This document shows positions 8,460 through 55,316 of a stretch of 64,000 nucleotides of DNA, piece after piece. Source of the DNA: an uncultured Candidatus Bathyarchaeia archaeon (GTDB taxonomy: Archaea; Thermoproteota; Bathyarchaeia; Hecatellales; Hecatellaceae). How positions within the stretch are numbered: position 1 is the stretch's first letter; each line of letters starts with the position of its first letter. The notes under the pieces are model-generated. The model was not told the origin of the DNA, made no database searches, and saw only the letters and a list, made by a program, of their open reading frames with translations. Where the stretch lies: positions 919 to 64,918 of the forward strand of contig CAZMUQ010000002.1 in the NCBI GenBank assembly GCA_964569845.1. Direction: 5' to 3'. The position numbers and the translations under genes are program-made.

Positions 8460-8777
8460 GAAATCCTCCCCGGAAAAACGAAATTATGGTTAAATTGTAA
8501 ACATATATAAACATTTTTGTTTAAAAATGTACATTACCAAAAATCCCAACAAAAACAGTATGGTGTGTTCGGTTCCCCGCCTAATAGAGGTTCTAGTTAC
8601 TAGTAGCTTTACTAGTAGGACGGTTGAAACAGTAACAGAAAACCGTAACCAAGCTTCCCATGTAAACCTGGAAAACCTGAAACTAAGCTTAAAACAGGGA
8701 AACAACCAAAATTTAAGCTCCAACCTTGAAAACAGGGAAAAAACGGGGATTATAAGGCGTTTCACCCCTTATATAGC

Positions 8778-8851
8778 GGGTCCGGTGGGATTTGAACCCA
8801 CGACCAACAGCTTAGGAGGCTGCCGCGCTATCCTGGCTGCGCTACGGACCC
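8778..8851 (-). tRNA. tRNA-Arg (anticodon CCU)
   Basis: Reverse complement folds into a cloverleaf: acceptor GGGUCCG/CGGACCC, D-stem GCGC/GCGC, anticodon stem GCAGC/GCUGU with loop CUCCUAA, T-arm GUGGG-UUCAAAU-CCCAC. 74 nt, no encoded CCA. Confidence 0.85.
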
Positions 8852-17590: not shown

Positions 17591-19849
17591 TTAATCACAT
17601 TCAGAATAGCCACAATTTGAAAGGCATTTCTTGCAACCTTCAATTCTTATAAGGGGGCTTCCACACTCAGGACATGCACCATTAACAATTGAATAAAAAG
17701 TCATTCCAGCAGAATCATTAATTTTTTCTCCCGTATCAGGTAGTAATCCTTTCTCCTTTAGATATAGCTCTAAGGCTTTACCTATAGCATCAGGACATGA
17801 TAAAACCTTGTTTTTTCCGATACCAATCTGCCTATCGCATGATATTCCCTTATAATGTTTAACAATTTCCTTTGGATCAATACCGCATCTTAAAATCAAA
17901 GAAGCAGACCTTCCAAGACCTTCAGTTTGGGCTGAAGCACATCCGCCAGCTTTTCCAAGCCTAGCAAAAATCTCAAATGGTAAGCCGTTTTCATCTTCAT
18001 TAATAGTTACATAAAGGGAACCACATCCTGTTTGAATTTCGTATGTAACTCCATGTAACCTTTTTGGACGCTTCCTAGGCTTGATAAACTCAGGTTTTTC
18101 AGGCTTCCTTTGTGGCCCTGTTTCTAAGACTTGAGATTCTCTACACTTATCTCTATAAACTGTTATTCCTTTGCATTTAAGTTTCCATGCAAGCATGTAC
18201 ACTTTTTTAACGTCTTCAATTGTTGCTTCATGCGGCAGATTTACGGTTTTTGAAACAGCATTGTCAGTATATTTTTGGAATGCAGCCTGCATTCTAACAT
18301 GCCACTCAGGAGAAACATCAAAAGCAGTAACAAAAATTCTTTTGATATGGCCTGGAATTTCCTCTATTTCCCTTAGCGACCCTTTCTCAGCTATTTTTTC
18401 CATCAACTCCTTACTATAGAAACCTTCCCTTTTAGCAAATTCCTCAAAAAGGCTGTTAACCTCAACAAGTTTTTCACCTTCCAAGACATTACGTACATAA
18501 CATAAAGCAAAAATAGGTTCAATGCCACTGGAGCATCCAGCTATAATAGATATTGTTCCAGTTGGAGCTATAGTTGTAGTGGTAGCATTTCTTAATTTAC
18601 GTACACCATCCCATTTACTACCCCTCCAATTAGGGAAAACACCCCTTTCTTCAGCCAATATTTCAGAAGCTATTTTTGATTCCTCCTGAATAAAACCCAT
18701 AACTTTTTCAGCTAACTGTAATGCCTCCTCAGAATCGTAAGGAATACCAAGTTTAATTAGCATATCAGCCCAACCCATAACACCTAAACCAATTTTTCTG
18801 TTTCCTTTTGTCATCTGCTCAATTTGTGGAAGAGGATACCTATTCACATCAATAACATTATCAAGAAAATGCACAGCTAACCTAACAACTCTGCGAAGCT
18901 TTTCCCAATCTATTCTTCCATCTGTAGCCATTTTTGCAAGATTTATTGAGCCTAAATTGCATGATTCATATGGAAGTAGCGGCTGCTCACCACAAGGATT
19001 AGTACTCTCAATACTTCCTAGGTGAGGAGTAGGATTATCTTGGTTAATTCTATCAAGAAAAATTAAGCCAGGATCACCTATTTTCCATGCTGTTTCAACA
19101 ATAAGGTCAAAAACTTTTCTTGCATTAAGCATACCCACACATTCATTATTTCTAGGATTAATTAACGGATAATCTTCACCTTTCTCAACAGCCTCCATAA
19201 ATTTATCATCAACAGCAACAGAAATGTTAAAATTGTTTAACCGCTTACCATTAACCTTGCAAGTTATAAACTCTAGGATATCCGGATGATAAACACTTAA
19301 AATACCCATATTAGCTCCACGTCTTGTCCCACCTTGCTTAATGGCTTCTGTTGCAGCATCATAAACCATCATAAAGGATACAGGCCCGCTTGAAACTCCT
19401 TTAGTTGATTTTACAACATCTCCTTTAGGTCTAAGCTTTGAAAATGAGAAACCTGTCCCCCCGCCAGATTTATGAATTAAAGCTGCATGTTTAATAGTTT
19501 CAAAGATGCTGTCAATCGAGTCTTCAACTGGAAGAACAAAGCATGCTGAAAGTTGCCCAAGTTCTCTTCCAGCATTCATCAAAGTTGGAGAGTTAGGCAA
19601 AAACTCAAGATTAGCCATGAGATGATAAAAATCTTCAACAATCTTCTCAATTTCATCATTTGTTTTTCCATAAAGTTTATCGGCTGAAGCCACACCTAAA
19701 GCAACCCTTAAGAACATTTGCTGAGGAGATTCAACAATACGTCCATTCTCATCTTTTTTTAAATACCTTTTTTCCAAAACTTTTAGGGCATTAGGAGTTA
19801 AATTAATCTTCTCTGTTAGTAGATGATGAAAAACTTTCATCTTAATCAA
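17591..19849 (-). CDS. nrdJ: adenosylcobalamin-dependent ribonucleotide reductase (class II)
   Basis: 752 aa with LSACFVLPVEDS, active-site NPCGEQPLLPYESCNLGSINL and Cys-rich C-terminal tail. Confidence 0.85.
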   Translation of the reverse strand: MIKMKVFHHLLTEKINLTPNALKVLEKRYLKKDENGRIVESPQQMFLRVALGVASADKLYGKTNDEIEKIVEDFYHLMANLEFLPNSPTLMNAGRELGQLSACFVLPVEDSIDSIFETIKHAALIHKSGGGTGFSFSKLRPKGDVVKSTKGVSSGPVSFMMVYDAATEAIKQGGTRRGANMGILSVYHPDILEFITCKVNGKRLNNFNISVAVDDKFMEAVEKGEDYPLINPRNNECVGMLNARKVFDLIVETAWKIGDPGLIFLDRINQDNPTPHLGSIESTNPCGEQPLLPYESCNLGSINLAKMATDGRIDWEKLRRVVRLAVHFLDNVIDVNRYPLPQIEQMTKGNRKIGLGVMGWADMLIKLGIPYDSEEALQLAEKVMGFIQEESKIASEILAEERGVFPNWRGSKWDGVRKLRNATTTTIAPTGTISIIAGCSSGIEPIFALCYVRNVLEGEKLVEVNSLFEEFAKREGFYSKELMEKIAEKGSLREIEEIPGHIKRIFVTAFDVSPEWHVRMQAAFQKYTDNAVSKTVNLPHEATIEDVKKVYMLAWKLKCKGITVYRDKCRESQVLETGPQRKPEKPEFIKPRKRPKRLHGVTYEIQTGCGSLYVTINEDENGLPFEIFARLGKAGGCASAQTEGLGRSASLILRCGIDPKEIVKHYKGISCDRQIGIGKNKVLSCPDAIGKALELYLKEKGLLPDTGEKINDSAGMTFYSIVNGACPECGSPLIRIEGCKKCLSNCGYSECD

Positions 19850-20001
19850 GCCTTTAAAAGCTAGATAATGATAGGTATATTAACTCTCCCGTGGATGTAA
19901 GAATAAGTTTATACTCAATATTTAATCTTTTCTACAAAAATGTATAAAAAAATGTAGTTGAATTCTCCTAACTCTGCAGGTTTAAGATAAAATGGGTTAT
20001 T

Positions 20002-22290
20002 TTAAAACTTCTTTATCACATTTTTACGGCCCTTGTGAGACCACCACTCCATTGGAAGGTACGTTGCGGATTCTCTTGCATAATTAACTATGCTTGTTAA
20101 GCCGCAAATTGGACATTTCTGTTTAAACCCTTTAAATGTTTTTTTACAGTAGCCACAATATGAAATAACATAATCATAAACATAAAAGCCAACATTATAT
20201 CCTCCGCAAATCTCCTTAGTTTTCTTAAGAAGTTCTTCACTTGAATACTCGCCTATAAGGGGGATTCTAAGCAAATGCCCTCCATTAAAAATTGAATGAA
20301 ATTTTTCTTCTAATCTTAGCCTATCATCTAAGGATATTTCTACGTTATCAGGGATTACAGAATTAAATGTATAATATGGATTTTCAGCATCCCCTTGAAC
20401 ATTAACCTCAGAAAAACCATAAAGTTTAACATCTTGTTCAGCCATTTTTTGAGATGCTTCAGCATCTGAAACCTGAGAAATGTAGATTCTCAGGTTAAGT
20501 TTTTTAGATACTGCATTAACCTTGTTAATTAAATGCTCTACAAGTTCTAATGCAAAATTTTGAGGCATAAGATCCTCATATATATCATACCCAAGATGAA
20601 ATTTGATAGCTTCAGCTAAGCCTACAACGCTAATTAAACCAAAAAAGTTGTCTAACCTACCGTATGTTTCACCATCAACTACACTTGAAAAATTTGGAAG
20701 GATATTCTCCTTAAACCTTTTATCAATCTCTCTCATTTTAACATTTAAAACTTCACCTGTAAGTTCAACAACCCTTTCAATACCATCAAAAAACTTATTA
20801 TCATCTCTTCTTGCTTCATAAGCTATCCGTGGGAGGTTTATTGAAATATTATTAAGGCAACAGACCCTTAAAGTATCAATTTCCCAATCCATTTTCCAAT
20901 CCACATTAACTTTTTCACCATTTGCAAGATAACTCGAAAATTCATCTTGTTCTCTAACAAGGTTAGCTACATAGAGCAAGCCATAATCAGCAGCAATTTT
21001 ATGAGCTTTTTCTAAAACATCATCATATTTAGCTCCTAAGCAACCAGGTCTAATTTTTAGGATAAGGTGGGGATTAAATAAGGGCTTTTTTTCACATATC
21101 TCAAGGAAAACCTCAAGAAGAAGATTTAAAATTTTTTGTGCTTCATCTTCATAATCACCATAAGTAAGTTGCGGAGAGCCTTCAAGGCCAATTATTGGTA
21201 AATTTTTAAGATGCTGAGGAACTGTTACCTCTAAGCCTAAGCTTACTCCGCTGAAAGATTTTAAGCCGATATTGCTTAATTCTAGAAGTAAAATTTTTAA
21301 AGTCTTCTTAATATCCTCTACTGGTTTTTTGGTAGCATAAGGTGAAAGAAAAATATTAAAATAATCAACCCCTTGCTCTCCTGAAACTTCATACTCAAAA
21401 AATCTTAACATACTCGTTGTTATGTTAATCGCTTCAGCAAAAGTTTTTGGCTGGGTGAATAGTAATGGCTTGTATGGATTTAAAAAATCTAAAGCTTTAA
21501 ACTTTCCTGAGAAAAATACTCTTAAATCATGGTAAACAGTAGAGGGAGTTAAAATCCATGAATTTGAATTTGATATGTGAATTTGACCAGAAAGATGAGC
21601 ATCTGCAACATTTCTCGGTAAGCTGTTAAGAAGCATATATTCAGTTATAACTCTATCTCCTGCTTTCAATCTCACAAAATTTGCACCCAGAAGTTTTTTA
21701 GAAACATCCTCAATTGTTCTTTTTACATCATAAGGCGGCATACCAAGCCTCGTTAACCTATGCCTATATTCCTCAAGATCGCTTTCTAGAAGTATAGCAT
21801 TTACAAACTCCCTAATTAGCGGAGCTGTAAGATACTTTACTGGTAACTTAAAAAGTCTCTCCTCAACTTCTAAGGAAACTTTCTCAGCAACATCTTGAGA
21901 TAAACCAGCCTCCTCAACAAGAACAGAAGCTATTTTATTTCTATCAAATTCCTCTACAGTATATCTAGAAGTCCTAACAAGCATTCTACCAGATTTTTTA
22001 AGAGCATACTCCTCAAGATCCTTCGAAAATCTAACAATCATTAAGCCTAAATCAGTTATTTTATACTTTTTAATAGATTTTTCAAAAGTAATTAGGCCTG
22101 CCTTTATAAGGTTTTTAAGATGATAGACGAATTTTCCAGCATCTTTTGTAGGTTCAAAATTTAACATCTCCATTATTTCGCTATAGGTTAAGGGACCTTT
22201 CATAGCAATAAGTTTTAAAGTTTGGATTCTTGTTGGTGCCGAAACAGCATCAAAAATTTCTGCACTTACTCTTGTCTTCTTCTTTGACAT
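20002..22290 (-). CDS. RNR-family paralog with N-terminal winged-helix and ATP-cone domains (NrdD-like or inactivated RNR homolog)
   Basis: 762 aa. Residues 1-100 are ArsR-like wHTH. Residues ~100-190 form an ATP-cone (RYTVEEFDRNKIASVLVEEAG). The body contains RVCCLNNISINL, resembling the C-N-L-G-S-I-N-L finger loop of RNRs. The C-terminus has CGYC...CPIC. No NPCGE motif was seen. Confidence 0.5.
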   Translation of the reverse strand: MSKKKTRVSAEIFDAVSAPTRIQTLKLIAMKGPLTYSEIMEMLNFEPTKDAGKFVYHLKNLIKAGLITFEKSIKKYKITDLGLMIVRFSKDLEEYALKKSGRMLVRTSRYTVEEFDRNKIASVLVEEAGLSQDVAEKVSLEVEERLFKLPVKYLTAPLIREFVNAILLESDLEEYRHRLTRLGMPPYDVKRTIEDVSKKLLGANFVRLKAGDRVITEYMLLNSLPRNVADAHLSGQIHISNSNSWILTPSTVYHDLRVFFSGKFKALDFLNPYKPLLFTQPKTFAEAINITTSMLRFFEYEVSGEQGVDYFNIFLSPYATKKPVEDIKKTLKILLLELSNIGLKSFSGVSLGLEVTVPQHLKNLPIIGLEGSPQLTYGDYEDEAQKILNLLLEVFLEICEKKPLFNPHLILKIRPGCLGAKYDDVLEKAHKIAADYGLLYVANLVREQDEFSSYLANGEKVNVDWKMDWEIDTLRVCCLNNISINLPRIAYEARRDDNKFFDGIERVVELTGEVLNVKMREIDKRFKENILPNFSSVVDGETYGRLDNFFGLISVVGLAEAIKFHLGYDIYEDLMPQNFALELVEHLINKVNAVSKKLNLRIYISQVSDAEASQKMAEQDVKLYGFSEVNVQGDAENPYYTFNSVIPDNVEISLDDRLRLEEKFHSIFNGGHLLRIPLIGEYSSEELLKKTKEICGGYNVGFYVYDYVISYCGYCKKTFKGFKQKCPICGLTSIVNYARESATYLPMEWWSHKGRKNVIKKF

Positions 22291-22417: not shown

Positions 22418-22663
22418 TTGACTATAGCATTTGTCTTAATAAATGTTCAACCTGGAAGTGAAGAAAAGGTTATAGAGAAGTTAAAAAGTTTTGATAAGGT
22501 TAAAGAAGTTTATGGGCTTTACGGTATTTATGATATTATGGCTAAAATTGAAGCAAGCTCCTTGGAAGAAATAAAAGAAACAGTAGATTTTAGAATAAGA
22601 AAACTTGAAAATGTAAGATCCTCAATAACTATGATAGTTATTGAAAAATATCTTACAAGCTAA
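22418..22663 (+). CDS. stand-alone RAM (Lrp/AsnC C-terminal, ACT-like) domain protein
   Basis: 81 aa beta-alpha-beta-beta-alpha-beta pattern (AFVLINVQPG...YGIYDIMAKIEA), paralogous to the three other RAM genes in the window. Confidence 0.55.
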   Translation: MTIAFVLINVQPGSEEKVIEKLKSFDKVKEVYGLYGIYDIMAKIEASSLEEIKETVDFRIRKLENVRSSITMIVIEKYLTS

Positions 22664-22674
22664 ACGGGATAAAA

Positions 22675-22923
22675 TTGATAACAACTTTTTTCCTTATAAC
22701 CGTTAAAGCTGGAACAGACCAGGAAATAATAAGGAAACTTAAGAGTTATAAGGAAATAAGCGTTAAAGAGGTCTACGAAATCTATGGAGCATTTGACATT
22801 CTAGCTAGAATTGAAGCTGAAAGCGAGGATAAAATTTCAAAAGTTAGATTAAATTTAGAAGAAGATAAAGATGTTTGGTCTATTCAGGTTGTTAAGGTTT
22901 CCTTTGAATGGAAAAAAGCTTAA
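22675..22923 (+). CDS. stand-alone RAM domain protein (tandem paralog)
   Basis: 82 aa (FFLITVKAGT...YGAFDILARIEA), 12 nt downstream of the previous RAM gene. Confidence 0.55.
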   Translation: MITTFFLITVKAGTDQEIIRKLKSYKEISVKEVYEIYGAFDILARIEAESEDKISKVRLNLEEDKDVWSIQVVKVSFEWKKA

Positions 22924-23474
22924 CTTGAAGTTAAAAGCTTCATTAAATGCTTCTCATCAATTTCAGCCCTTGTTCTCCAACCAATCCTAAGCACATTATT
23001 TTCGTCTTCTCTAAGATAACCTAGCCTTGTAAACCTTTCCAAATTTAATCTTACCTTCCAAACAGGAAATTTCTCAGCTAAAAATTTTTCAACTTCGCTT
23101 TTTGATACTTCCCCACCTTTTGAATTAAGATAAACTATTGTTGCAGCTAAAATTGCTAAATCATCAACCCTCCAACCAGATACATCAGGCCAATCTTCAA
23201 ACTCACCTTCTTCAAATGTTAAAAGAACCCAATCTTCATCAGAAATTTCATTTAGGCTTTTTTTAAAACCATCACCGGAAAAAACTTTAACCTTTAACCC
23301 TAGCTTTTTAAGCTCATCATTCAAAATCATTAAAAGTTTAGTATAATCTTCTCCAAAAGCCCTTTTTAACTCTGAGCTTTTAACACCAGGAATTTTGTGT
23401 CTTTGAAGTAAAAGCATTCTAACAAGTTTTTTTAAACTATATTTGTAAAAATCTTTAACTCTTTTCTTACTCAA
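22920..23474 (-). CDS. ScpB-like (kite) protein, tentative
   Basis: 184 aa. The C-terminal half (LAILAATIVYLNSKGGEVSKSEVEKFL...LERFTRLGYL) resembles the second winged helix of ScpB. Last gene of the SMC-like operon, with 1-nt spacing. Confidence 0.4.
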   Translation of the reverse strand: MSKKRVKDFYKYSLKKLVRMLLLQRHKIPGVKSSELKRAFGEDYTKLLMILNDELKKLGLKVKVFSGDGFKKSLNEISDEDWVLLTFEEGEFEDWPDVSGWRVDDLAILAATIVYLNSKGGEVSKSEVEKFLAEKFPVWKVRLNLERFTRLGYLREDENNVLRIGWRTRAEIDEKHLMKLLTSS

Positions 23475-23475
23475 C

Positions 23476-24267
23476 TTAAACAGCCTTCCTTAAAGCTATC
23501 CATTTTTCATAACTTATAGGTATTATAAAGGAGGAAATTTTACCACTTTTTTTAGGTTCACTTTTTGGAATTAGGAAAATTTCATTTTTTAATGGGTCTG
23601 TAATAAGTTCAGCGTAACCATAGCTGATGAGAAAACTTGTTAAATATGCTTTAACAATAAATTCCTCGTAAATATTGGAGTGTATAAAATTCCAATAGGA
23701 AATTTTACCGTTCTTAGCTTTATTCTTAAGAAGCTCCCATAAATCTTTTAAAATTTTTTCAAACTCCCTCTTGAGTATAAGTTTTTGATTTTCTACCTCC
23801 TTCCACGACATAACTTCTATCTGAGGTGTATCCTGAAGATTAAGCTTTTTCATTTTAAGTTTTTGAGGAGCAAGATTCTTCCAATATTTTAAAGCTTCCT
23901 CCAACTTCTTAATAGGGAGAGCTTTAATAGTAGCGATAGGATTCCAAGATTCTAGAAGGATCTCAGCTAATTTTTTTGTTTTAATGCTACGTATCTTTGA
24001 TTTAACAGTTTCAAGGTCAAGATAAGGTTTAGATTTATGCTTTATCCATTCTTCTTGAAGCTTAACAACTTTTGACAAACTATTTATCGCTTCAGCATCT
24101 AAACAATAATCTTCAAAAGATTTATACTTATTAAGCAAACCTCTAAGGGTTTCCAGTATTTCGCAAACTTCAACCTCAAATGGATCCAGAATTTTTTCAT
24201 CAACTGTTTTACATAAGCTAATAACTCTTAAGAGAAATTCCCTGCTGTTTTCGCCTTTTTTACCCAA
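23476..24267 (-). CDS. kleisin (ScpA)-like protein, tentative
   Basis: 263 aa. N-terminal helix KILDPFEVEVCEILETL resembles the ScpA neck-binding helix. C-terminal AYLTSFLISYGYAELI...EIFLIP resembles the ScpA winged helix. Confidence 0.45.
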   Translation of the reverse strand: MGKKGENSREFLLRVISLCKTVDEKILDPFEVEVCEILETLRGLLNKYKSFEDYCLDAEAINSLSKVVKLQEEWIKHKSKPYLDLETVKSKIRSIKTKKLAEILLESWNPIATIKALPIKKLEEALKYWKNLAPQKLKMKKLNLQDTPQIEVMSWKEVENQKLILKREFEKILKDLWELLKNKAKNGKISYWNFIHSNIYEEFIVKAYLTSFLISYGYAELITDPLKNEIFLIPKSEPKKSGKISSFIIPISYEKWIALRKAV

Positions 24268-24276
24268 TTTTAAACC

Positions 24277-26235
24277 TCAAACCAGAAGTTTAACATTTGA
24301 TTTTCCGCTAATATTCTGAACAATAATTATATTTGCGTCTTTATCAAAAATTGGCAAAAGTCCTGGTGTTATTACAATATACTGCATATTTTTCTGCGAT
24401 TTTACTGTCGAAACTACAAGCTTGGAGATTATTTCACGATTCCGCGGATCCATGTGAACTTCAAATTCATCAACTGCCCTTATTGGAGATTTAACATGTT
24501 TTTGAAGTGAAAGAAGAAAAGCCATAACAGCTGTACTTCTTTCTCCACCACTTTGAGTGTATGCATCTAAAACTTTTGGAGAATAACCAGAGAAGCCTAT
24601 ACTTATTTCTAGCCCTGCAGATTCTATATCCTCATCATTTACAAGCTTTATGCTACCATTAGCACCTATACTTTGAAGGGTTGTATTGAAGCTTTTATTT
24701 AGATCTTCAAGAAAATTGGTTATGATAGTTTTCCATGTTTGCTTTCTAACTTCAACTTCAGCTAACATTCTACGCTTATTCTCAGCAACAATTATAGACT
24801 TCTCCTTAAGCTCCTCAAAAACCTTAAAATATTTTTCAAACATCATCTCAGCTTCATCTGAAACATCCCTTAGAGATTCAAGCTGTAAATTTATAATTCT
24901 TAAATCTTCATTTACCTCTTGTGGACTACGCTTTGTTTCAATTTTTAGCTCCAAACTATCAGCTTTAATAAAGTATTGTTGAAACTCTTTTTCAAGCCGG
25001 GAAACATCTAAGCCTATTTTTCCAATATCCTTTTCTAAAATATTCTTTTGAAAATCTAAGGTGGCTTCCCTAATTTTATGGTCTAAAATTTCTTCTTGAA
25101 GGAGTTCTATTTCTTCATCTAATCTATTAATCTCTTGTACTAGTTTATCTTTAAACTTTTTAACCTCATCAAGTTTACCGACAATATTCTTGTATTTAGC
25201 TTCAAACTCTAAAAGCAACTTTTTAGGAAGTTTTACAGAATTTTCTGAATCTTTATTTTTATGTTTGTTTAGAAGCTCTCTAAATTCTAAATAAGCTTCT
25301 ATCCGACCTTTTTCTTTTTCCAATTCTAGAATTTTATAGAAAATCTCTTTTCTTTCATCTTTAAGTTTAATTACATCAATATTCATATTTTCAATTTTAT
25401 CCTTAATCTTTTTAATGCTATCCTTAATTCTTTCTACTTCGTTTTTCTTATCCCTAAAAGAATCCTTTAATCTTTCGAGTTCATTTTTAAGCTTAAAAAC
25501 ATGAGACCATGCAAGCTCAGCATTTAAATAATTTTTTCTCTCAAGAAATTCTCTCTTCTTAACAAGTCTTTCATATTGCTCTTTCCAATATTTTAGAGTT
25601 TGTTCAGCATTTGATAGAAGCCTTAAAACTTCAGATTCTTCACTTAAAATCTTGTTAAGTCTTTCTTGAGCTTCTAAAACTCTTTGTCGATATGCTTGAA
25701 AGCCAACAGCCTCTTCAACCATCATAAGCTTCTTATTTGGAGGTATGAAGCTAAACTCTTCAATCATGTTTTGATGCATGATTATAAGCATATTGTTTGG
25801 GTTTATTCCTAAATTTGAGAAAATTTTTACAATCTCAGCCTTATTTACCTCATGGTAATCAACTTCATACCAGTAAAGACCATCCTTTCTAAGAATTTTT
25901 GAAACTAAGAATAAATCTGAGCTACATCCTTTTATTGGTCGTTTACCATTAACTTTAGAGTTATCAAAAACAAGCGTTATTCTTGCCTGTTTCTCACCCC
26001 AGCGTATTAAATCACTTAGCTTTTTAGATCTTTCAGTATAAGTTTGACCTAAAACTACGGATAAAGCTATAAGTAAAGAAGATTTACCTGAACCATTAGG
26101 ACCGCATACTATGTTTAATCCTGGTTTAAGAGGGATACGTGCATACTCGTAACTCATGAAGTTTTCTAAGATAATCTCCTTTAGCAAGGGTTTTCTAGAA
26201 ACTTCCTCTAAGACACTTTTGTCTTCTACTTTCAT
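24277..26235 (-). CDS. SMC-like ABC ATPase, short hinge-less (RecN/Sph/ClsN-like architecture)
   Basis: 652 aa with Walker A GPNGSGKSSLLIAL, about 330 aa continuous coiled coil with no hinge or CxxC hook, signature SGGERST, and Walker B AVDEFEVHMD. Confidence 0.75.
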   Translation of the reverse strand: MKVEDKSVLEEVSRKPLLKEIILENFMSYEYARIPLKPGLNIVCGPNGSGKSSLLIALSVVLGQTYTERSKKLSDLIRWGEKQARITLVFDNSKVNGKRPIKGCSSDLFLVSKILRKDGLYWYEVDYHEVNKAEIVKIFSNLGINPNNMLIIMHQNMIEEFSFIPPNKKLMMVEEAVGFQAYRQRVLEAQERLNKILSEESEVLRLLSNAEQTLKYWKEQYERLVKKREFLERKNYLNAELAWSHVFKLKNELERLKDSFRDKKNEVERIKDSIKKIKDKIENMNIDVIKLKDERKEIFYKILELEKEKGRIEAYLEFRELLNKHKNKDSENSVKLPKKLLLEFEAKYKNIVGKLDEVKKFKDKLVQEINRLDEEIELLQEEILDHKIREATLDFQKNILEKDIGKIGLDVSRLEKEFQQYFIKADSLELKIETKRSPQEVNEDLRIINLQLESLRDVSDEAEMMFEKYFKVFEELKEKSIIVAENKRRMLAEVEVRKQTWKTIITNFLEDLNKSFNTTLQSIGANGSIKLVNDEDIESAGLEISIGFSGYSPKVLDAYTQSGGERSTAVMAFLLSLQKHVKSPIRAVDEFEVHMDPRNREIISKLVVSTVKSQKNMQYIVITPGLLPIFDKDANIIIVQNISGKSNVKLLV

Positions 26236-46034: not shown

Positions 46035-46159
46035 GGGCTCACGGCCATAGTCCTCAGGGTAAGACCCGGTCCCATCAGAACCCGGAAGTGAATCCTGAGG
46101 ACGCCGTTCGTTGTACTACTCTCCGAAAGGGGGTGGGAAGCGGCGGTGCCGTGAGCCCA
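46035..46159 (+). rRNA. 5S ribosomal RNA
   Basis: GGGCUCACGGCCAUAG...ACCCGGUCCCAUCAGAACCCGGAAGU...GUACUACUCUCCGAAAGGGGGUGGGAA...GCCGUGAGCCC. Terminal helix I pairs, loop C/helix III consensus is present, about 55% GC against a ~33% background. Followed by a T-rich run (46162-46170). Confidence 0.8.
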
Positions 46160-49024: not shown

Positions 49025-49115
49025 TGGTGGGCCGGGCAGGACTCGAACCTGCGACCCTCCGCGCTTCCTGAAAAATTTGTCAGGCGGAGATCCTAACCAT
49101 CTAGACGACCGGCCC
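49025..49115 (-). tRNA. tRNA-Val (anticodon GAC) with 14-nt intron at canonical 37/38 position and encoded CCA
   Basis: Reverse complement reads GGGCCGGUCGUCUAGAUGGUUAGGAUC UCCGC CUGACA[AAUUUUUCAGGAAG]C GCGGA GGGUC GCAGGUUCGAGUCCUGC CCGGCCC A CCA. The CUGA/UCAG helix between loop and intron is consistent with a bulge-helix-bulge splice motif. Confidence 0.75.
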
Positions 49116-54445: not shown

Positions 54446-55237
54446 TTAGATTAACTCTTCAGGAATTTTATTTGGCTTATAAGCTATTTTAGGTTTAATT
54501 CCAGATTTCCTCAACCTTTCAACAACATGGGGATATAGAAACACGTATTCTTCTTCAACTTCTTCTACAAGTTTTTTATCTATATCCATAAGAATCTCCA
54601 ATAAATTTTGAAACTCTCTTTTAGAGCTAAAGGATAACATTACCGCAGGATGACATGAAACACCGTAGTCAAGTAGATTTTTTAATGCTTTAAGTTGGAG
54701 ATTAAATGCTTCAGGTTTAGCCCCGGTTAACATGGAAAATTGTTGGTCATTTACACCTTTAAGGGAAACCCTAACATGAATGCAGCTAAATTTTGAAAGC
54801 TCTTTAGCGTAACTTAGATCGTAACCTATAAGTATTCCATTTGTTTCAAGGATGAAACTATAGTTTGATTGTTCAACAAGTTCAAGTAACTTAAGTAAAT
54901 GCTCTTTTCCTATTGTAGGTTCATTACCACTAATTCTTAAAAGACTATAGTTAAACTTTTTAGCACAAGCATCAAGTTTGCTAAAGATGTACTCAGCACT
55001 GTAAAAATTCCCTACTTTACCTGGATTATCCCTAGGATAATTACTCCAGCAAAAAACACATTTTAGGCAGCATCCGCAACAATGCCGACCAGTTAATGGT
55101 TATCGGCTGTTGCGATGCCACCATACCACCTACCACCACGAGCAACCCGATAATACTTTCTTTCTAAACCTTTACACACAATTTTCTCAAGATCTTCAGC
55201 ACGTTTTACAGGGTCATACAGCTTTTTAAACACCTCC
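54446..55237 (-). pseudogene. radical SAM enzyme (PFL-activase-like), reading frame interrupted
   Basis: In-frame with track ORF 54446..54733 the upstream translation gives CCGCCLKCVFCWSNY (CxxxCxxC cluster motif)...ISGNEP...ETNG. The further N-terminal piece (LEVFKKLYDP...RWYGGIATADNH-stop) lies in another frame. The junction coincides with an imperfect inverted repeat at 55070-55118. No ATG start is present. Confidence 0.5.
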
Positions 55238-55316
55238 AAAAAAACACTAAGTTAAAAGTTAGAACATAAAATTTAATATATGTTGCTATATCTTGCTAGA
55301 AGTAGGAATAAATTAA

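Follow-up and report, generated by a model that had tools for sequence, protein, structure and literature searches.

NrdR, the transcription factor dedicated to ribonucleotide reductase (RNR) genes, is found in bacteria and in only some archaea. To our knowledge, the transcriptional control of deoxyribonucleoside triphosphate (dNTP) synthesis in archaea is largely unknown. NrdR joins an ATP-cone-type domain to a DNA-binding domain, an N-terminal Zn-ribbon, and is tied to RNR genes of different classes (PMC9110341). In NrtR, a Nudix-like catalytic fold fused to a winged helix serves as an effector sensor; its gene adjoins the pathway it controls and the protein has been mis-annotated as an enzyme (PMC2330246). 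We describe here a gene with features of both, located in a 64,000-nucleotide stretch of an uncultured Candidatus Bathyarchaeia archaeon of the Hecatellales (contig CAZMUQ010000002.1, positions 919 to 64,918; hereafter the window). The gene (20002..22290, (-) strand) encodes an N-terminal winged helix-turn-helix (wHTH) domain, an ATP-cone-like domain and a catalytically dead body resembling NrdD, the class III RNR, and it lies immediately upstream of nrdJ, which encodes a class II RNR. We propose, at a probability of roughly 0.68, that this protein is a pseudoenzyme transcription factor for RNR genes, a non-catalytic descendant of NrdD. This reading is drawn from the conserved loss of catalytic residues, an invariant wHTH helix, a conserved position ahead of RNR genes of two classes and an element found at RNR promoters.

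A comparison of this candidate regulator with the described systems shows both clear likenesses and significant disparities. As in NrdR, a cone is paired with a DNA-binding domain, the gene is tied to RNR genes of different classes, the cone folds match, and a conserved A/T-rich element is present at RNR core promoters, comparable to the NrdR boxes. In contrast to NrdR, the DNA-binding domain is an ArsR-type wHTH and the Zn-ribbon is only C-terminal, a dead NrdD barrel of about 560 aa is carried along, and the cone is without the Lys-Arg pair. The candidate operator is also distinct in sequence from that of NrdR and lies upstream of a stretch resembling an archaeal factor B recognition element (BRE) and TATA box, no sequence homology extends beyond the cone, and the candidate regulator comes from Thermoproteota archaea. 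With the ArsR/SmtB repressors it shares the wHTH topology and a long C-terminal helix, and some relatives carry the annotation "ArsR family transcriptional regulator", but its effector module would be the cone and RNR barrel rather than a metal site. The closest likeness in fold is to NrdD itself, above all the grx/trx-linked NrdDs of loci L005 and L007, which share the barrel, the Zn-ribbon, the NLPR strand, the YYT and GG motifs and a nearly identical pattern of cone and linker. Unlike NrdD, the candidate regulator has no radical Gly, thiyl Cys, beta1 Cys or NxN flap, has gained a wHTH and scores below the NrdD equivalog cutoff. As proposed here, it would resemble NrtR in using a catalytic fold as an effector sensor, in its winged-helix fusion, in adjoining the pathway it controls and in being mis-annotated as an enzyme, with the difference that the enzyme family is the RNR/glycyl-radical barrel. 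In the literature searched we found no description of a wHTH-NrdD fusion, of DUF7347 or of a Gly-less NrdD, nor of an RNR/glycyl-radical barrel as the effector domain of a transcription factor. There is a substantial chance that these proteins form a new family of their own, belonging with both the cone-bearing, RNR-dedicated transcription factors and the enzyme-derived ones.

The gene is an intact open reading frame (ORF) of 762 aa with an ATG start, in a window of 31-36% G+C; its assignment draws on the ORF, on Pfam and NCBIfam, on an AlphaFold2 model and on fold matches in the PDB. Its closest relatives are in metagenome-assembled genomes of Bathyarchaeia/Hecatellales. A first-pass annotation made from the letters of the DNA had described an ORF here with an ArsR-like winged helix at residues 1-100, an ATP-cone and an RNR-type body, placed immediately upstream of nrdJ, and each of these features was borne out. 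Pfam places DUF7347/HTH_5/HTH_20 at residues 10-87, ATP-cone at 103-175 and NRDD (PF13597) at 206-751. The full-length AlphaFold2 model, computed from an alignment of 66 family sequences, has a predicted local distance difference test score (pLDDT) of 88.6 and a predicted template-modelling (TM) score of 0.77. A Foldseek search of the PDB with this model has class III RNRs in all of the first 36 places (expect value (E) 1e-24 to 1e-16), including those of S. thermophilus (9dca), T. maritima (4coj), P. copri (8p2s) and T4 (1h79), at target-normalised TM-scores of 0.6-0.75.

The NrdD-type alpha/beta barrel spans residues 206-705 (20176..21675, (-)) and is followed by a Zn-ribbon with a relic glycyl-radical loop at residues 706-762 (20005..20175, (-)). 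The NRDD match (E 2.9e-63) covers profile positions 12-549 of 562, and the score against the NrdD equivalog TIGR02487 is 235.6 bits, under the cutoff of 326.35. With residue roles taken from the P. copri NrdD paper (PMC11226230), catalytic positions were mapped by a family profile against PDB NrdD chains, by alignments anchored on E. coli NrdD (from NC_000913) and by alignment with canonical Bathyarchaeia NrdDs that adjoin family members; column counts refer to 66 members. The radical Gly (E. coli G681, P. copri G711-Y712) is replaced by A742/T743, with "RESATY" standing opposite the canonical RVCGY/RVTGY in a relic loop "ARESATY" (residues 739-744, bases 20059-20076). The two columns that could hold the Gly carry A/T/S and then K/R, and Gly occurs at either in only 4 of the 66. 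At the finger loop the thiyl Cys (E. coli C384, P. copri C416) is replaced by E459 (codon 20914-20916), "ANGEKV" aligning with "PMGCRSF", and the family column is mixed (E in 17 members, C in 14, T in 12, S in 5, L in 5). The beta1 Cys (E. coli C175, P. copri C171) corresponds to T251, in a column of E/S/T/G that holds Cys in no member. The NxN flap, which closes over the substrate in NrdD (PMC11226230), is missing as well: where E. coli and the canonical neighbours have (E)NAN ("ENANLQ" in the neighbours), the family has "tqlik.a" and the candidate regulator "KRTIEDV". With all four of these features replaced, the protein is, as judged from its sequence, not an active NrdD.

Other parts of the NrdD architecture are kept. 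The barrel motifs NLPR, YYT and GG are invariant in the family, as are residues H254, E301, Q306, N312, D472, N485, D620 and Y640, and the C-terminal CGYC...CPIC reported by the first-pass annotation is the NrdD Zn-ribbon, whose four Cys (C712, C715, C726, C729) are invariant. That annotation had also found no RxxGY tail, in agreement with the "RESATY" at the aligned position, and no NPCGE motif; NPCGE belongs to class I/II RNRs, and its absence is expected in an NrdD homolog. Its comparison of RVCCLNNISINL with an RNR finger loop did not hold. Profile and MAFFT alignments rule out this segment as the thiyl-Cys finger loop, which is "ANGEKV", and place it on the strand that follows (canonical GNLGVISLNLPRIA). 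Residue C478 of RVCCLNNISINL occupies the beta6 position, where formate-type NrdDs have Asn and thioredoxin-type NrdDs a third Cys.

The N terminus (residues 7-99; 21994..22272, (-)) is an ArsR/SmtB-type wHTH extended by a long alpha5-like helix, as indicated by Pfam, the models, Foldseek and conservation. Helices at residues 8-15, 19-31 and 36-42 precede a recognition helix (47-63), a wing (67-78) and the alpha5-like helix (80-99); the modelled topology is H-H-H-H-E-E-H at a pLDDT of about 90. Pfam DUF7347 matches at E 3.6e-7, with HTH_5 and HTH_20 weaker. When residues 1-200 were modelled separately (pLDDT 82.7), the model matched the ArsR/SmtB repressors ArsR (6j05), CadC (1u2w), CzrA (1r1v) and SmtB (8qkf) in Foldseek at target TM-scores of 0.6-0.7 and root-mean-square deviations of 2-3 Å over 75-95 columns, so that the N terminus does model as a wHTH. 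The NCBIfam model HTH_metalloreg (NF033788) reaches E 6e-6 and 26 bits, under its cutoff of 55. The first 100 residues include no Cys, and their one His (H57) falls within the recognition helix; thus the wHTH has no metal-sensing site. In the recognition-helix region P47, D50, A51, G52, F54, Y56, H57 and L58 are invariant across the family.

Between the wHTH and the barrel lies a divergent ATP-cone (residues 103-179; 21754..21984, (-)), assigned from Pfam, fold matches and invariant columns. The Pfam score (PF03477, 26.4 bits) is just over the cutoff of 25.8, and Foldseek matches the fold to the cones of NrdR (9a6n/7p37/9fxk) and of the ATP-cone NrdB 5olk. No other part of the protein is as conserved across the family as the cone. 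The canonical VxKRDG has become VRTSR (V105-R-T-S-R109), with K changed to T and R to S. Of the other residues, R106 and S108 do not vary across the family, and conservation of R109 is 90% or more. Cone and linker in the family (VRTSR...YLTAPLIREFVNAIL...YRHKLTRLGLPVYDV) are close to the N termini of adjoining canonical archaeal NrdDs, which read VRTSK...FLSAPLIRELV...TRLGLPVSDV in L007 and VRRSDG...FISGPLIRELV...TRVGAPVYDA in L005. The simplest history would be that a grx/trx-linked NrdD was duplicated and fused to a wHTH, its chemistry then being lost.

Intact family genes are present in at least 590 GTDB species genomes at 40-87% identity, mostly in Bathyarchaeia; among the 80 loci listed, 78 have Bathyarchaeia-type titles, one is a Thermoproteota archaeon and one an uncultured archaeon. 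The fusion of wHTH and ATP-cone, which the first-pass annotation had suggested checking in orthologs, is kept in the same architecture in the best 120 clusters, down to 40% identity, and mean column identity across the family is 57% with numerous invariant positions. A search with the wHTH-plus-cone module returned 364 clusters (50% identity clustering, E ≤ 1e-10). Among these are shorter relatives of about 580-720 aa, which Pfam resolves into DUF7347, ATP-cone and a partial NRDD domain and which stop right after the Zn-ribbon or are without it, the whole radical tail being lost. Their hosts are Nitrososphaerota/Thaumarchaeota, Nitrososphaerales, the cultured Conexivisphaera calida (WP_174447857.1) and Aigarchaeota, and their database names range from "anaerobic ribonucleoside-triphosphate reductase" to "ArsR family transcriptional regulator". 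That the radical domain was lost step by step while recognition helix and cone stay invariant argues, at the level of sequence, for a conserved non-catalytic function.

The genes next to the family point to RNRs. In the window the proposed target is nrdJ (17591..19849, (-)), a class II (B12-dependent) RNR with a TSCPD domain identified by Pfam and by NCBIfam NF006417 (1208 bits, over the cutoff of 961). The true nrdJ start is probably the ATG at 19840, as the orthologue in locus L004 starts at the corresponding ATG. Among the 77 species loci with room downstream, 33 have an RNR gene on the same strand within 1.2 kb downstream (27 canonical nrdD, 6 nrdJ), and none has one upstream; the arrangement seen in the window recurs with both nrdJ and nrdD. 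The linked canonical nrdD genes have intact RxxGY (SRVTGYY-type) motifs and are often preceded by a glutaredoxin-like gene. A Nitrososphaerales member without the radical tail (L167) precedes, by 185 bp, an nrdJ with an apparent intein. The Conexivisphaera member (L168) has no RNR neighbour. The L167 nrdJ (L167:8279-11200) carries an insertion of about 400 aa between ...ALIHK and SGGGTGFS that looks like an intein. A convergent pyrB together with pyrI lies just past the regulator/RNR pair in L005, L006, L007 and L010 and is seen in many loci with no RNR gene. This recurrence suggests an ancestral nucleotide-metabolism neighbourhood of the order regulator, RNR, pyrB/pyrI.

The spacers between the family gene and the RNR gene contain a common element of about 17 bp (consensus ATACAGAATTTTATACA). 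It precedes the start codon of the downstream gene by 85-100 bp, and a CTAAAAA..TAAATA stretch that resembles an archaeal BRE/TATA by 8-9 bp. The layout of the element is TACA-N7-ATAC, and in some loci it is a perfect palindrome, TATACA-N6-7-TGTATA. A position weight matrix (PWM) trained mostly on nrdD-linked loci gave 24 hits of at least 16 bits on both strands of 771 kb, against 0.8 in shuffled sequence. Twenty of these lie in the spacer between regulator and RNR genes and three just past a regulator gene where the contig ends; the last, in L054, is 60 bp past the stop codon of the regulator, with an 85-aa Cys-rich ORF coming next at about 280 bp. When public metagenomes were scanned for exact matches to operator plus BRE, 78 sites were found, 67 before grx/nrdD and 53 after a family gene; other sites include two chance matches within bacterial genes and two at loci that are rearranged. 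At four loci (L093, L103, L108 and L120) no family gene lies immediately upstream of the element and it still precedes grx-nrdD, which indicates that it belongs to the RNR promoter. L125 and L155 also have the element without a family gene upstream, the contig ending before the next gene.

In the window the candidate operator is CTACATTTTTTTATACA (19941-19957), inside a palindrome CTACA-N16-TGTAG (19932..19957, (-)) and supported by its PWM score of 14.9 bits, its footprint and its layout. A BRE/TATA-like nrdJ core, GAAAAG-ATTAAATATT (19917..19932, (-)), read from the sequence, lies 8 bp downstream and would, going by the archaeal consensus, be the promoter. Across the nrdJ-linked loci (the window, L004, L012, L013 and L014) the sole conserved block upstream of nrdJ is (A/G)TACATTTTT(C/T)TATA(C/G)TTTTTTGT..AAAA..TAAATA, which has the same TACA-N7-ATAC layout and the same place before the BRE/TATA-like stretch as the nrdD element. 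It remains with nrdJ where an antisense gene parts nrdJ from the regulator. No clear TACA-N7-ATAC was found in L167; a CTACA-N10-TGTAG palindrome over the stop codon there may be chance.

Some further features of these promoters were noted. Past the TATA-like stretch, L005, L034, L054 and L076 have a second palindromic site; as a universal second operator it was rejected, being specific to subgroups, e.g., TATACAGAAATTTGTATA in L034/L054 and TATACAAAAATTTGTATA in L076. L034, L054 and L076, which have no adjacent RNR gene, carry the operator, BRE/TATA-like stretch and second palindrome before the 85-aa Cys-rich ORF (MALETHVKSVYS...CEICSVQLKCYG...FGVCETCG, no Pfam match), about 280 bp past the regulator stop codon; this ORF may be a further regulon member. 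Most grx-nrdD promoters (e.g., L093, L108 and L068), including some without a regulator gene upstream, have a further conserved block, (A/G)TGT(T/C)AATTT, about 14-22 bp before the operator. Operator and promoter are duplicated in L098, around an insertion with a tRNA-like sequence (GGTCCCGTAGCTTAGCTGGGACAGAGC...) after the first copy, and in L142, where the insertion comprises a 68-aa ORF and a 309-aa antisense gene; in both, the second operator copy precedes grx-nrdD. An Rfam scan found no riboswitch or other RNA element near the regulator-nrdJ pair.

Taken together, these features suggest the following model. The protein is an archaeal NrdD descendant that kept its barrel, Zn-ribbon and cone, lost the glycyl radical, catalytic Cys and flap, and gained an ArsR-type wHTH. 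Dimerization through the ArsR-type helices, the NrdD interface or both would place two winged helices on the element of about 17 bp that stands 8-9 bp before the BRE/TATA-like stretch of the neighbouring RNR gene, nrdJ in the window. Nucleotides on the cone, on relic allosteric or substrate pockets of the barrel, or on both might set occupancy or oligomeric state, so that RNR expression would track the (d)NTP pool in the manner of bacterial NrdR. Given its place immediately before the BRE, the element could serve activation as well as repression; repression is suggested by the additional site that some loci have past the TATA-like stretch. The first-pass proposal of an inactivated RNR paralog turned regulator fits the evidence of lost catalysis, the wHTH, RNR linkage and a promoter element, while DNA binding and (d)NTP sensing remain predictions.

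Several observations weigh against this proposal. Binding of the element by the candidate regulator is inferred from co-localisation, and nucleotide sensing and the ligand are likewise predictions. The element also borders the core promoter and is rich in A/T, and could therefore be the target of a different factor. The Lys7/Arg8 pair of the ATP-cone contacts triphosphates in P. copri NrdD (PMC11226230), and with this pair replaced, binding of ATP or dATP by the divergent cone is uncertain. Within the window the PWM is not enriched (6 hits of at least 10 bits against 4.4 expected), and the nrdJ site is one of four sites of about 15 bits, the other three lying in two intact coding genes and in a frameshifted radical-SAM gene; we therefore rejected a window-wide regulon. 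Autoregulation was likewise rejected, as no convincing operator was found upstream of the regulator gene in the window and 86 loci, the sole hit being in L077 (at -59, 15.5 bits). No RNR gene is present within 4 kb at 44 of the 77 loci, and the adjacency to nrdD could be partly a relic of tandem duplication.

The last two points lead to the alternative that the protein is a DNA-binding regulator of other genes, with RNR adjacency a duplication relic and the element bound by a different factor. A cone and linker derived from the neighbouring archaeal type of NrdD are consistent with tandem duplication, pyrB/pyrI are common neighbours in addition to the many loci lacking an RNR gene, and in L034, L054 and L076 the element precedes the Cys-rich ORF rather than an RNR gene. 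However, nrdJ is not a paralog of the regulator gene, so its recurrent adjacency, in Hecatellales-like Bathyarchaeia and in Nitrososphaerales, is not explicable as a duplication relic. The arrangement is always upstream and co-oriented, and all strong element hits in the 771 kb adjoin the regulator gene. We regard this alternative as unlikely.

It is also improbable that the protein acts at the protein level, as a partner or scaffold of an RNR or redoxin or as a nucleotide buffer or sensor, with the wHTH serving protein contacts or non-specific tethering to DNA. In keeping with such a role, active enzymes are often regulated by a pseudoenzyme paralog, conservation extends to the barrel and the regions that form the dimer, and the gene is co-located with grx-nrdD. 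Yet the same arrangement occurs with class II NrdJ, which offers no paralogous heterodimer partner; the recognition helix is invariant, as expected for sequence-specific reading of DNA; and a specific conserved DNA element is present at exactly the linked promoters.

A functional class III RNR with an extra DNA-binding domain, using a shifted radical residue or another radical source, was the other option raised by the first-pass annotation, and we consider it very improbable. The near full-length NRDD match, the NrdD fold, the intact Zn-ribbon and a TPAE-like "SDAE" that is possibly kept would suit an enzyme, and 14 of the 66 relatives have the "GCR" finger-loop Cys and a few the loop Gly. 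Against this, no member combines the two, the mappable radical residues of the candidate regulator (Gly, thiyl Cys and beta1 Cys) and its NxN flap are all replaced, the score is under the equivalog cutoff, some relatives are without the entire radical domain, and a genuine NrdD or NrdJ is encoded next door. Motif screening and family scoring also found no NrdG-type activase within the 64-kb window. The simple motif screen found no intact CxxxCxxC ORF and missed the sole radical-SAM gene of the window (54446-55239, (-), 33 kb from the regulator), which is frameshifted near 55095; its N-terminal part ends ...YYRVARGGRWYGGIATADNH at a stop and the CxxxCxxC goes on in another frame. This gene (Pfam Radical_SAM 1.4e-17) was rejected as NrdG, being a generic radical-SAM gene that scores 34.7 bits against a cutoff of 131 for NrdG2, and likewise 52 against 400 for ScmF and 47 against 325 for MoaA. 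Decay to a pseudogene, an assembly error or recoding could each account for the frameshift. Finally, that the regulator gene is a decaying pseudogene or an artefact of annotation or assembly might be thought from its lost catalytic residues, but is refuted by the conservation pattern, with an intact 762-aa ORF, hundreds of orthologues at 57% mean column identity and a confident model, and has a negligible probability.

The window contains other features of note. Divergent from the regulator gene are tandem genes of 81-82 aa (22418-22663(+) and 22675-22923(+)) that consist of an Lrp/AsnC ligand-binding (RAM) domain only, without a DNA-binding domain, and the same arrangement is found in L004. 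Next, at 22920-26235(-), an SMC_N/AAA-type gene of 652 aa is followed by genes of 263 aa (weak Nse4_C hit) and 184 aa; this group is syntenic in L004 and may be an SMC-kleisin-like operon. A 5S ribosomal RNA gene (46037-46157, (+)) and a tRNA-Arg(CCT) gene (8776-8851, (-)) were annotated. Rfam also reports an 88-nt tRNA at 49028-49115(-) (50.5 bits) that is not reported by ARAGORN and may be an intron-containing archaeal tRNA.

In conclusion, we put at about even odds the broader claim that this gene is a founding member of an archaeal family of transcription factors, one with a whole RNR catalytic subunit as its sensor, wHTH control of RNR promoters of any class, and the standing of an NrdR counterpart in Thermoproteota (Bathyarchaeia, Nitrososphaeria, Conexivisphaerales and Aigarchaeota). 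We know of no earlier case of an RNR catalytic subunit recycled as the sensor of a transcription factor, and if true this would be the first. In Bathyarchaeia and Nitrososphaerales, hundreds of proteins with the database name "anaerobic ribonucleoside-triphosphate reductase" are probably not enzymes. Such mis-naming would distort metabolic inference, e.g., by implying anaerobic dNTP synthesis in organisms that rely on B12-dependent NrdJ. If the proposal is correct, it provides a testable regulator/operator pair for RNR genes in a large and ecologically dominant archaeal group that includes relatives of the ammonia oxidisers.

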